This document shows, one piece after another, positions 1,500-5,142 of a stretch of 5,142 bases of DNA (positions within the stretch are counted from its first letter, which is position 1; each line of letters starts with the position of its first letter). Where the stretch lies: the IMG/VR virus record IMGVR_UViG_2681813263_000003. One strand, 5' to 3'. A program made the translations under genes and the position numbers. The notes beneath the pieces were generated by a model. That model searched no databases. It saw nothing but the letters and a program-made list of their open reading frames with translations, and was not told the DNA's origin. This DNA comes from a virus. Its lineage: Duplodnaviria > Heunggongvirae > Uroviricota > Caudoviricetes.

Positions 1500-1994
1500 A
1501 TGGCTGGAACGGCGGGGGGGTCCGGGCGTCGCCCCAAGCCAACGGCGCGCAAGGCGCTGGCCGGAAACCCCGGCAAGCGAGCCCTGAACAAAGATGAACC
1601 TGTTTTTACGCCCATCAAAGGTGTTGAGCCACCAGAGTGGTTCGCTGAAGAAGATCTCCCTCTCGCCACGATCATGTGGCAACTGACAACCAAAGAACTC
1701 TGCGGTCAGGGCCTGCTGTGCGTGACTGACCTGGCGGTACTTGAGCGGTGGTGCGTGGCCTATGAGTTCTGGCGACGTGCCGTGAAAAATATTGCCATAC
1801 AGGGCAACACCATCACCGGTGCAATGGGCGGCAGGGTCAAAAATCCGGAGCTGACCGCCAAAAAAGAACAGGAGTCCGAGATGAGCAGCACGGGGGCAAT
1901 GCTCGGACTCGACCCCAGCAGCCGCCAGCGTCTGATTGGCCTGGCGGGGCAGAAGAAAGCCACTAACCCGTTTCTGAAAATTATCGAATCATGA
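1500..1994 (+). CDS. terS: Terminase small subunit, P27 family
   Basis: Translation [36 protein letters not shown]... with downstream ...[22 protein letters not shown]... has the characteristic P27-family N-terminus and core. AGGAG at 1486-1490 favours ATG 1500 over the GTG 1491 used in the ORF track. Stop TGA 1992-1994 overlaps the large-terminase start (ATGA). Confidence 0.88.
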
Positions 1995-3724
1995 GCCGGA
2001 AATCTTACCCCAACGTAAATGCTGCAAATCAGTATGCCCGGGATGTCGTGCGCGGAAAGATTGTTGCCTGCCAGTTTGTGATTCAGGCCTGCCAGCGCCA
2101 TCTTGATGACCTGATGGCGGAAAAAAGTAAGTCGTTTCGTTACCGCTTCGACAAGGACCTGGCTGAACGGGCCGCGAAATTTATTCAGCTGTTGCCGCAC
2201 ACCAAGGGGGAGTGGGCATTCAAACGGATGCCCATCACGCTGGAGCCGTGGCAGCTATTTGTGATCTGCTGTGCGTTTGGCTGGGTCAATAAAGGCACCC
2301 GGTTGCGCCGCTTCCGGGAGGTGTACACCGAAATCCCCCGTAAGAACGGCAAATCAGCAATCTCTGCCGGTGTTGCCCTGTATTGTTTTGCCTGTGATAA
2401 CGAGTTTGGCGCGGAAGTGTATTCCGGTGCCACGACAGAGAAACAGGCGTGGGAAGTCTTTCGCCCGGCGCGACTGATGTGTAAACGCACACCCATGCTG
2501 ACGGAAGCGTTCGGGATTGAGGTTAACGCCTCAAACATGAACCGTCCGGAGGATGGCGCGCGGTTTGAACCGCTGATCGGCAACCCAGGTGATGGTTCAT
2601 CACCCCACTGTGCCGTGGTTGATGAATATCACGAGCATGCCACCGATGCGCTTTATACCACAATGCTTACCGGGATGGGGGCGCGACGTCAGCCACTGAT
2701 GTGGGCCATCACCACCGCCGGGTACAACATTGAGGGGCCGTGCTACGACAAGCGGCGGGAAGTCATCGAGATGCTCAACGGCTCGGTGCCTAACGATGAA
2801 CTGTTCGGGATCATCTATACCGTTGATGAAGGTGACGACTGGACCGGCCCGCAGGTGCTGGAAAAAGCCAATCCAAATATTGGCGTGTCGGTTTATCGCG
2901 AATTTTTGTTAAGTCAGCAGCAGCGTGCGAAAAATAACGCCCGTCTGGCAAACGTCTTTAAAACAAAACACCTCAATATCTGGGTGTCGGCGCGTTCGGC
3001 GTATTTCAACCTGGTGAGCTGGCAGAGCTGCGAGGATAAATCACTGACCCTTGAGCAGTTCGAGGGGCAGCCGTGCATTCTGGCCTTTGACCTGGCGCGT
3101 AAGCTGGATATGAACAGCATGGCGCGACTTTATACCCGCGAGATTGACGGTAAAACGCATTACTACAGTGTGGCCCCGCGTTTCTGGGTACCGTATGACA
3201 CGGTGTACAGCGTCGAGAAAAATGAAGATCGACGGACAGCCGAACGCTTTCAGAAATGGGTGGAAATGGGCGTTCTGACCGTTACCGATGGTGCGGAGGT
3301 GGATTATCGCTACATCCTCGAGGAGGCCAAAGCGGCGAACAAAATCAGCCCGGTCAGTGAGTCACCCATCGACCCCTTCGGGGCGACCGGGTTGTCACAT
3401 GACCTTGCTGATGAAGACCTGAATCCCGTCACTATCGTCCAGAACTTCACCAATATGTCCGATCCGATGAAAGAGCTGGAAGCAGCGATTGAATCGGGAC
3501 GTTTTCATCATGACGGCAATCCCATCATGACCTGGTGTATCGGCAACGTGGTCGGCAAAAACATGCCGGGTAACGATGATGTGGTGAAACCCGTCAAAGA
3601 GCAGGCGGAAAACAAAATCGATGGTGCAGTTGCGCTGATTATGGCGGTTGGCAGAGCCATGCTGTACGAGAAAGAAGACACGCTGTCTGACCACATTGAG
3701 TCCTACGGGATCCGCTCGCTTTAA
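1991..3724 (+). CDS. terL: Terminase large subunit (ATPase plus nuclease; Terminase_1-like)
   Basis: 577-aa ORF. Walker A-like motif EIPRKNGKS and Walker B-like motif [10 protein letters not shown] in the N-terminal ATPase domain; C-terminal RNaseH-like nuclease signatures ([11 protein letters not shown] ... [12 protein letters not shown]). Size and position downstream of terS are typical. Confidence 0.96.
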
Positions 3725-3735
3725 CTGAGGTAATT

Positions 3736-3918
3736 ATGATCATGCTGATTCTCGCGCCTCTGGTGGGCGTGCTGGGTGCGCTTTTGCTGGCGTATGGTGC
3801 CTGGCTGATTTATCCCCCGGCGGGTTTTGTTGTTGCCGGGGCGCTGTGCCTGTTCTGGTCGTGGCTGGTGGCGCGATATCTCGACCGTACACGGCAGTCT
3901 GTCGGCGGAGGTAAATAG
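3736..3918 (+). CDS. Small hypothetical membrane protein (60 aa, two predicted TM helices)
   Basis: [26 protein letters not shown] - PPAG - [19 protein letters not shown], followed by a short basic tail. GAGG at 3727-3730 lies 5 nt upstream of ATG 3736. Its stop TAG 3916-3918 overlaps the portal GTG start by one base. I recognise no family from the sequence alone. Confidence 0.55.
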
Positions 3919-5131
3919 TGTTCTTTTCGGGATTATTTCAACGAAAAAGCGATGTGCCGGTGACCACGCCAGCAGAACTGGCTGATGCTATCGGGCTGTC
4001 ATACGACACCTATACCGGAAAGCGGATCAGTAGCCAGCGGGCCATGCGCCTGACGGCGGTCTATTCTTGCGTCAGGGTGCTGGCAGAGTCTGTTGGTATG
4101 CTGCCCTGCAGTCTCTACAAAATCAGCGGTACCCTGAAAACACGGGCGGTGGATGAACGACTGCATAAGTTGGTTTCGGCAAAACCTAATGGCTACATGA
4201 CACCGCAGGAATTCTGGGAGCTGGTTATTGTCTGCCTGTGTCTACGGGGGAATTTTTACGCCTACAAGGTAAAGGCACNNNNNNNNNNNNNNNNNNNNNN
4301 NNNNNNNNNNNNNNGANNNNNNNNNNNNNNNNNNNNNNNNNNNNNNNNNNNNNNNNNNNNNNNNNNNNNNNNNNNNNNNNNNNNNNNNNNNNNNNNNNNN
4401 NNNNNNNNNNNNNNNNNNNNNNNNNNNNNNNNNNNNNNNNNNNNNNNNNNNNNNNNNNNNNNNNNNNNNNNNNNNNNNNNNNNNNNNNNNNNNNNNNNNN
4501 NNNNNNNNNNNNNNNNNNNNNNNNNNNNNNNNNNNNNNNNNNNNNNNNNNNNNNNNNNNNNNNNNNNNNNNNNNNNNNNNNNNNNNNNNNNNNNNNNNNN
4601 NNNNNNNNNGTTGNNNNNNNNNNNNNNNNNNNNNNNNNNNNNNNNNNNNNNNNNNNNNNNNNNNNNNNNNNNNNNNNNNNNNNNNNNNNNNNNNNNNNNN
4701 NNNNNNNNNNNNNNNNNNNNNNNNNNNNNNNNNNNNNNNNNNNNNNNNNNNNNNNNNNNNNNNNNNNNNNNNNNNNNNNNNNNNNNNNNNNNNNNNNNNN
4801 NNNNNNNNNNNNNNNNNNNNNNNNNNNNNNNNNNNNNNNNNNNNNNNNNNNNNNNNNNNNNNNCGAAGAGCTGGGGCTGGGATTTATCAACTATTCACTG
4901 GTGCCGTATCTGACCCGCATCGAACAGCGGATCAACACCGGACTGGTACGAAAAAGTAAGCAGGGCGTTTATTACGCCAAATTTAACGCCGGGGCGTTAC
5001 TGCGCGGGGATATGAAGTCCCGTTTTGAAGCCTACGCCACCGGGATCAACTGGGGAATTTACTCTTCCAATGACTGCCGCGACCTGGAAGATATGAATCC
5101 GCGTCCCGGTGGTGTAATGCCGATCAGTTAA
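3918..5131 (+). CDS. Portal protein, HK97 family; interior masked by Ns with an apparent frame change across the gap
   Basis: GTG 3918 is preceded by GGAGG (3906-3910, 7 nt spacing). N-terminal 120 aa (…RAMRLTAVYSCVRVLAESVGMLPCSLYK…QEFWELVIV…) resemble HK97-type portal proteins. After the N block the portal-like sequence (…FINYSLVPYLTRIEQRINTGLV…ATGINWGIYSSND…) continues to TAA 5129-5131 but in a different frame (pre-gap frame 0, post-gap frame 2). Total span of about 404 codons fits a portal protein. The end coordinate and integrity are uncertain because of the gap. Confidence 0.8.
4279..4863. other. N-masked or unresolved block (585 positions) containing isolated called bases GA (4315-4316) and GTTG (4610-4613)
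   Basis: Directly visible run of n characters; it lies inside the portal gene. Confidence 0.99.
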
Positions 5132-5142
5132 GGATCAGTTGA

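Follow-up and report, generated by a model that had tools for sequence, protein, structure and literature searches.

We investigated a small open reading frame (ORF) at positions 3736-3918 of a 5,142-nucleotide stretch of DNA from a virus of the class Caudoviricetes (IMG/VR record IMGVR_UViG_2681813263_000003), the whole of which is called the window below. The ORF stands between the large terminase gene (terL) and the portal gene and, by its homology, is the already named prophage gene ymfR, PHROG 502. Comparison of its relatives in distant phages and prophages indicates that the ymfR family is inherited with the portal rather than with terL. We tentatively propose, at somewhat less than even confidence, that YmfR is made late and serves the portal from the inner membrane, in the initiation of the prohead, in the translation of the portal or in both; it would be an accessory part of the head module and not a moron. 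The gene itself is ordinary; the new element is the family-wide coupling of a tiny membrane hairpin to the portal, a pattern for which the literature searched gave no description.

The ymfR gene, its protein and its family

The 60-residue reading frame, on the + strand, starts with ATG at 3736 and ends with TAG at 3916-3918. An 11-nt spacer separates it from terL (1991-3724, + strand; Pfam TerL_ATPase and TerL_nuclease), whose TAA stop codon is at 3722-3724, and a Shine-Dalgarno-like GAGG (3727-3730, + strand) stands 5 nt 5' of the ATG. At the other end, the GGAGG of the portal Shine-Dalgarno (SD) sequence (3907-3911, + strand) lies inside the last ymfR codons, GGC GGA GGT AAA (Gly-Gly-Gly-Lys), and is followed by a TAGTG stop/start overlap (3916-3920, + strand) in which G3918 is common to the TAG and to the portal GTG at 3918-3920. 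The records of phiP27, SfII and E. coli K-12 carry identical ymfR/portal boundaries. The portal gene (3918-5142, + strand), which is HK97-type and is annotated as portal in phiP27, SfII and RefSeq, leaves the end of the window and is partly N-masked. Three N runs, at 4279-4314 (36 bases), 4317-4609 (293) and 4614-4863 (250), hide most of the middle of this gene, so that the portal is not readable through and any ORFs listed across it are artefacts caused by X residues.

The encoded protein has a mean hydropathy (GRAVY) of 1.16, with Kyte-Doolittle 19-residue maxima of 2.67 (residues 1-19) and 1.81 (residues 28-46). Hydropathy, an AlphaFold2 model and the family alignment together delimit a hydrophobic helix 1 at residues 2-25 (3739-3810, + strand) and a hydrophobic helix 2 at residues 31-47 (3826-3876, + strand). 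These are joined by a short Y-P-P-A-G turn, residues 26-30 (3811-3825, + strand), and followed by a basic, weakly conserved C-terminal tail, residues 48-60 (3877-3915, + strand). The AlphaFold2 model, made from a 30-sequence alignment, is of moderate confidence (mean pLDDT 71) and places helices at residues 2-25 and 27-56. A sequence-only reading of this DNA had described a 60-residue ORF with two hydrophobic helices, its own GAGG ribosome-binding site and a one-base overlap with the portal, and each of these features was confirmed in the sequence, the hydropathy profile and the model.

The same reading proposed to look for conservation of the frame at this position and for remote homologues, and both were found. 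The ymfR frame, 183 nt long and with unchanged start and junctions, is intact in 82 of 82 related viral loci, which represent 16 distinct DNA sequences of the gene, and remote homologues were recovered through PHROG 502 and a profile search (see below). The 23 variable sites across the 16 sequences fall mainly at codon position 3 (13 sites; the first position has 6 and the second 4), and the ratio of nonsynonymous to synonymous polymorphism (pN/pS) over the 82 loci is 0.21. The terL/ymfR junction is identical in 77 of them, the other five varying at a single base 5' of the GAGG. The window protein matches PHROG 502 with an E value of 2.8e-28 over residues 1-55 and has 167 homologous clusters in a large protein collection, while Rfam gave no RNA family anywhere in the window. 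The alternative of a spurious ORF in an intergenic spacer could be based on the shortness of the gene and on its lack of annotation in the SfIV, SfV and PY54 records. The conservation data already refute it: the frame is intact in every related locus, the substitutions are of the coding type, the PHROG 502 match is strong, the family is deep with conserved residues, and a ribosome-binding site and a coupling to the portal are present. We give this alternative virtually no credence and take ymfR, from these sequence comparisons, to be a real coding gene.

The window protein is identical at 58 of 60 residues (97%) to YmfR of E. coli K-12 (b1150; UniProt YMFR_ECOLI), with the same length, ribosome-binding site and one-base overlap with the next gene, and differs from it by two conservative changes in the C-terminal tail, R53Q and Q54S. 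The DNA is nearly identical as well, both junctions included. In K-12, ymfR belongs to the cryptic prophage e14, where the terminase remnant ymfN/aaaE stands on one side and the portal remnant beeE on the other. Whereas these e14 flanking genes are decayed, the window terL is intact and the portal appears intact within what the N-masking and the window end leave visible. The K-12 MG1655 annotation of YmfR reads 'IPR020297 domain-containing protein'. A megablast against 5426 complete E. coli genomes found the region in 1362 (about a quarter), RefSeq labelling the matches 'ymfR: protein YmfR' between 'terminase large subunit' and 'phage portal protein', and the exact window sequence is recorded as 'protein YmfR [Shigella sonnei]'.

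PHROG 502, 'membrane protein', includes phiP27 L37, SfII_03, ST64B Sb3 and the proteins of SfI and 118970_sal3, none of which differs substantively from the window protein, and in these relatives the gene sits between terL and portal as in the window. Both phiP27 L37 and SfII_03 are annotated as 'putative integral membrane protein'. A more distant relative is phiKO2 gp3, described in its record as 'similar to Bacteriophage phi27 gene', and further distant ones are an unannotated ORF of PY54 and ORFs in Marinobacter, Halomonas and Synechococcus phages. The sequence-only reading had called the ORF the least expected coding element of the window. This description is not supported, as the gene is the named ymfR of e14, annotated in phiP27, SfII, ST64B and phiKO2 and present in a quarter of the complete E. 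coli genomes.

The records of As1, vB_EcoM-689R6, -720R4 and -606R7 give the YmfR homologue the name 'head-tail joining protein W'. The corresponding place on the lambda map, between the genes for the large terminase (A) and the portal (B), is taken by the small gene for gpW, and the label looks like a transfer of lambda gene order only, without sequence support. An identity with gpW was considered and rejected: the window protein has no gpW family match in Pfam at E ≤ 1, its PHROG matches are to membrane or unknown families only, and gpW is a soluble protein, in contrast to the hydrophobic hairpin of YmfR. In the same way, there is no Pfam match to DUF1056, which we take to be a family of small proteins at the same map position in lactococcal phages. 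Pfam and NCBIfam gave only sub-threshold matches to unrelated membrane families, and hence no assignment. A profile search of PDB sequences found nothing meaningful and no solved phage structure with a YmfR relative, and Foldseek of the YmfR model against PDB gave as best match a hairpin of the type III secretion export apparatus at E 3.9, which is not meaningful either. The structure searches are uninformative because a two-helix hairpin is too generic.

In a joint alignment of the ymfR-type sequences with those of the SfV type described below, G11, G14, L18 and G21 of helix 1 and G35 of helix 2 are invariant. The profile of this alignment, searched against 1.84 billion representative proteins, retrieved 906 clusters at E ≤ 1e-3, carried by phages and prophages mainly of Proteobacteria. 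Among the 150 clusters listed of these 906, the proteins are 36-131 residues long, mostly 47-85, and the family pattern is D-x-x-G-L-x-G-x-x-L-x-x-Y-G-x-W-L-x-Y-x-P-A-G-x-I-x-x-G. A few members (P0176, P0228 and P0246), of 102-122 residues, consist of tandem-duplicated two-helix units. Another, P0199, continues out of the small ORF into the leader of the portal and is probably a frameshift or gene-call artefact.

Over 268 members, the mean number of lysine plus arginine residues (K+R) is 0.76 in the N-terminal tail, 0.05 in the loop and 2.61 in the C-terminal tail, and the commonest loop is YPPA (113 of 268). Considering the positive-inside rule, this difference in charge between tails and loop leads to the prediction of an inner-membrane hairpin with both ends in the cytoplasm (N-in/C-in) and the YPPAG turn in the periplasm. 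The conservation is concentrated in the helices, with small-residue motifs and an aromatic belt of Y20, W23 and Y26, and in the P-A-G turn, whereas the tails are variable; this pattern points to helix-helix contacts inside the membrane. The commonest C-termini of the family are GGE (54), GGK (37) and GGD (6), the residues that an SD-like GGAGG or GGAGA would encode.

Linkage to the portal gene

We examined 118 distant loci, from Reyranella, Bradyrhizobium, Xanthobacter, Roseateles, Mangrovibacter, Sphingopyxis and many uncultured viral contigs, the neighbours being classed by iterated hidden Markov model searches. The small ORF is found in all 118, and a portal homologue lies directly downstream of it in 110 of the 112 that have room downstream. 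A terL homologue ends within 400 nt upstream of the small ORF in 87 loci. Another 19 have none within this distance; the terL end is 600-2200 nt upstream in the majority of them, while a few showed no terL homologue at all. Three further distant members have the Pfam context HNH - Terminase_4 - TerL - small ORF - Phage_portal - Peptidase_S78 - Phage_capsid. No natural YmfR-portal fusion occurs in the 118 loci.

In the inspected loci with a distant terL, reverse-strand ORFs stand between terL and the small ORF, which still abuts the portal. This arrangement is seen in the Reyranella-type loci (L183 3-2480; L169 1869-3922; L093 3454-3942), where the reverse-strand ORFs are of 162-393 residues; in L183, terL is also extended to 825 residues in an intein-like manner. 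No insertion between the small ORF and the portal was seen in the loci inspected. The reverse-strand ORFs therefore mark an accessory insertion point 5' of YmfR.

Among 81 distinct small-ORF/portal junctions, 57 show a 1-nt overlap (TGATG, TAATG or TAGTG) and 14 a 4-nt ATGA, i.e. 71 have an overlapping stop and start. The enterobacterial junctions shown mostly carry GGAGGT(A/G)A before the stop, with the variants GGAGAT and GGAGGGAA. In 31 of the 81, no SD-like motif precedes the portal start, and portal initiation there probably depends on upstream translation. Such junctions, together with C-terminal residues dictated by the portal SD, are what would be expected if the ORF were a pure translational coupler, serving only to bring ribosomes to the portal start while its peptide has no function. 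However, a coupler needs neither hydrophobicity nor constant length, whereas the two-helix build, the four invariant glycines and the xPAG turn are kept down to about 25% identity and across the 906 clusters. The pN/pS of 0.21 and the existence of tandem-duplicated versions also speak against a functionless peptide, and HK97 couples terL straight to the portal without such an ORF. Coupling as the sole function is, in our estimate, quite unlikely.

Using 75 distinct loci, we compared the divergence of the three genes in 2775 locus pairs, which are not independent of one another. No pair combines a YmfR identity of at least 80% with a portal identity below 50% (0/2775), and no pair shows the reverse, a portal identity of at least 80% with YmfR below 50% (0/2775). 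By comparison, 17 of the 2775 pairs have YmfR at 80% or more and terL below 50%. The partial rank correlation is 0.34 between YmfR and portal given terL, and 0.14 between YmfR and terL given portal. The linkage spans phages of Gamma-, Alpha- and Betaproteobacteria, with portals diverged to about 28% identity. These comparisons support the conclusion that the family is inherited with the portal rather than with terL.

The sequence-only reading had suggested a moron, i.e. a gene acquired independently that aids the lysogen or blocks other phages, by superinfection exclusion or as a membrane toxin or modulator. Indeed, YmfR is a small two-helix membrane protein, as are known exclusion proteins such as HK97 gp15 and T4 Imm, the gene is missing from HK97 and from many HK97-type modules, and PHROGs places family 502 in the category 'moron, auxiliary metabolic gene and host takeover'. 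This category is a label only, and the contexts found give it no support. No + strand promoter-like or terminator-like site was found in window 3300-4250, the gene starts 11 nt after terL and overlaps the portal, and its GC content (0.58) is continuous with the flanks (0.51-0.57), without compositional break. A rho-independent terminator annotated in SfII inside the ORF (2370-2419, equivalent to window positions about 3744-3793) was rejected, the terminator scan being negative there and the folding z score being -0.02 relative to shuffled sequences. The position and the coupling are fixed across portals of about 28% identity and across bacterial classes, and the gene tracks the portal type and is present in all 82 close loci rather than sporadically. 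Neither the window ORF nor its SfV-type counterpart matched a PADLOC defence family at E ≤ 1. The carriers of ymfR presumably differ in tail type (SfV/ST64B-like compared to phiKO2/PY54), which argues against an exclusion role specific to injection. HK97 gp15 and other small exclusion morons are, like YmfR, small predicted inner-membrane proteins of late operons. However, gp15 is a tail-region moron expressed from the prophage, whereas ymfR lacks own transcription signals and is both translationally joined to the portal gene and conserved alongside it; no homology to such proteins was found in PHROGs or PADLOC. The moron reading is not supported by these data, and we now consider it distinctly improbable.

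Additionally, in K-12 the RNA of ymfR goes up together with other e14 genes (log2 change of 4.52) on LP-600, which also induced the SOS regulon (PMC10012262), as would be the case for a gene co-regulated with the prophage and not for one that the lysogen expresses separately. Another study names ymfR among the uncharacterised clones that it tested for alanine export (PMC10299036). The literature searched, on ymfR, the carrier phages, small membrane proteins by the portal and DUF1056, contained no functional study of YmfR.

The SfV locus and portals without the gene

The terL of SfV is 95.5% identical to the window terL up to window position 3643, after which SfV has another terL tail and another portal, only 28% identical to the window-type portal (terL 3' ends compared: window about 3644-3724, + strand, and SfV locus L002 2212-2292). 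The last ~27 terL codons thus differ along with ymfR and the portal, so that terL C-terminal tail, ymfR and portal swap as a single block between the window and SfV. The C-terminus of the lambda terminase binds the portal, and this would fit such a block exchange.

The gap between terL and portal, empty in the SfV record, holds an unannotated 53-residue ORF with two hydrophobic helices, which matches PHROG 7105 at E 3e-22 and PHROG 502 at 5.7e-6. This SfV-type ORF resembles ymfR in its position, its two hydrophobic helices, its basic C-terminal tail and the invariant glycines, and differs from it in its length and in an identity of only about 27%. It overlaps both neighbours, by 4 nt with terL and by 11 nt with the portal. 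In the SfV record (U82619.2, locus L002) the ORF occupies 2289-2450 and the annotated portal start is at 2392. This start is probably 48 nt too far upstream, because the portal of a close homologue aligns from SfV residue 17, giving a GTG at 2440. With this GTG, the portal would overlap the small ORF by 11 nt, as in locus L086.

HK97 itself has no gene between terL and portal, which overlap directly, and the statement of the sequence-only reading that the HK97-type order usually has no gene in this place agrees with this. HK97-type portals were found in 1646 phage records, from which 16 diverse ones were sampled in addition to HK97. Of these 17, the two Vibrio phages K341 and H2 clearly carry a member of the YmfR family. 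In the Pseudomonas phage PAJU2 (L213 2149-2367), a marginal two-helix ORF with a weak family match precedes and overlaps the portal; upstream of this ORF, a small hypothetical ORF and a gene for a protease-capsid fusion take the place of terL. The family is absent from the 14 others, among them HK97, all the Gram-positive and actinobacterial phages, Bcep176, 16-3, CP1, BUCT603, Carrot, D164 and Mcat21. A different arrangement was seen in an Stx2a phage (L214 2196-2417), where the portal also comes after a protease-capsid fusion gene and is preceded and overlapped by a hydrophilic 73-residue ORF. A hydrophobic 'GLF' or 'GLFG' motif at the portal N-terminus was tried as a mark of the YmfR link and rejected, the portals of Bcep176 and Javan159 having similar N-termini in phages without a YmfR gene.

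Any two of the P27-type, SfV-type and HK97 portals share only 27-32% identity. Together with the distribution of the gene, this suggests that ymfR is old within part of the HK97-type portal family, and accessory.

Possible role of YmfR

Considering its place in the head module, ymfR would be made late, on one mRNA with terL and portal, and ribosomes ending its translation would start the portal by termination-reinitiation. The protein would insert in the inner membrane with both ends in the cytoplasm. There it may work with the portal at the cytoplasmic membrane, siting or aiding the initiation of the portal ring and the prohead, and translation of ymfR may also set the amount of portal made; these last two steps are proposed with low confidence.

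The one precedent that we can cite for membranes in head assembly comes from T4, whose portal is built on the inner membrane with the participation of gp40 and host YidC, gp40 being the phage factor said to help the gp20 portal assemble there (PMC4493910). The parallel with YmfR is a possible functional analogy only, no sequence similarity between YmfR and gp40 having been detected. Nor are genes 40 and 20 of T4 known to be neighbours. We hold the specific mechanism, portal assembly at the membrane with YmfR, to be doubtful, because of this lack of similarity to gp40 and because many such portals work without YmfR. It is unlikely, in our judgement, that the YmfR hairpins are dedicated portal partners, produced in step with the portal through termination-reinitiation, on which the portal ring and the prohead are nucleated or held at the cytoplasmic membrane in a large HK97-like group of phages of Gram-negative bacteria.

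Several points weigh against a portal-linked membrane factor. HK97 and 13 of the 16 other sampled phages lack the gene, so portals of the HK97 fold do not generally need YmfR, and the N-terminal 'GLF' motif does not set the YmfR-linked portals apart. The physical overlap of the genes could by itself yield the co-inheritance of YmfR and portal. The cytoplasmic tails are short and weakly conserved and offer little surface to bind a soluble portal, and the membrane insertion and topology are themselves predictions. YmfR shows no similarity to head-assembly families (none in PHROGs at E ≤ 1 or in Pfam), any more than to T4 gp40, and the literature searched gave no experiment on its function.

The portal-linked factor was also weighed against a role in lysis, as a holin-, antiholin- or pinholin-like regulator of timing. 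Two transmembrane helices in an N-in/C-in arrangement, a basic C-terminal tail and glycine-rich helices resemble, as we understand them, class II holins, the protein would be expressed late, and the window holds a lysis cassette about 2.7 kb upstream, composed of lysozyme (27-524), Rz (509-985) and Rz1 (741-923), which lies wholly within Rz in a different frame. However, YmfR has no holin family match in Pfam, PHROGs or NCBIfam, and its gene is invariably placed at the portal, not with the lysis genes. In addition, relatives carry separate holins of several kinds (Phage_holin_2_1; holin_8 plus holin_3_7; phiP27 L29) while the type of the small gene stays constant. A lysis function is thus very unlikely. 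The lysozyme has a hydrophobic N-terminus rich in Gly and Ala and looks like a signal-anchor-release endolysin.

Between the lysis cassette and terL, the window encodes an HNH endonuclease (1028-1378) and the small terminase (terS, 1491-1994). At 1440-1449, between these two genes, GCCCGCCCCA aligns with the annotated 10-base cos site of phiP27, GCCCGCCCCG. The order HNH - cos - terS - terL matches what we take to be the layout of HK97-like phages in which the HNH protein aids cos cleavage.

Another possibility is a virion or ejection protein, i.e. a hairpin packaged at the portal that assists passage of the DNA through the inner membrane when the next cell is infected. The tight linkage to the portal gene would suit it, and hydrophobic hairpins can form channels. 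With a GRAVY of 1.16, however, the protein should enter the membrane of the producer cell, it has no relative in the solved phage structures, and the literature searched holds no report of it as a virion protein. The differing tail types of the carriers, as we assume them, also make a role in the entry route unlikely. This explanation has a still fainter likelihood than that of a lysis regulator.

With the portal-linked inner-membrane factor as the preferred reading, ymfR stands as a membrane protein without obvious role in a module devoted to head assembly and DNA packaging. In practical terms, the gene has been overlooked in the records of SfV, SfIV and PY54 and mislabelled as 'head-tail joining protein W' elsewhere. 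If the YmfR hairpins are indeed dedicated portal partners, starting the head at the membrane, as T4 is known to do, would prove widespread and would be done by an unrelated protein of 60 residues.

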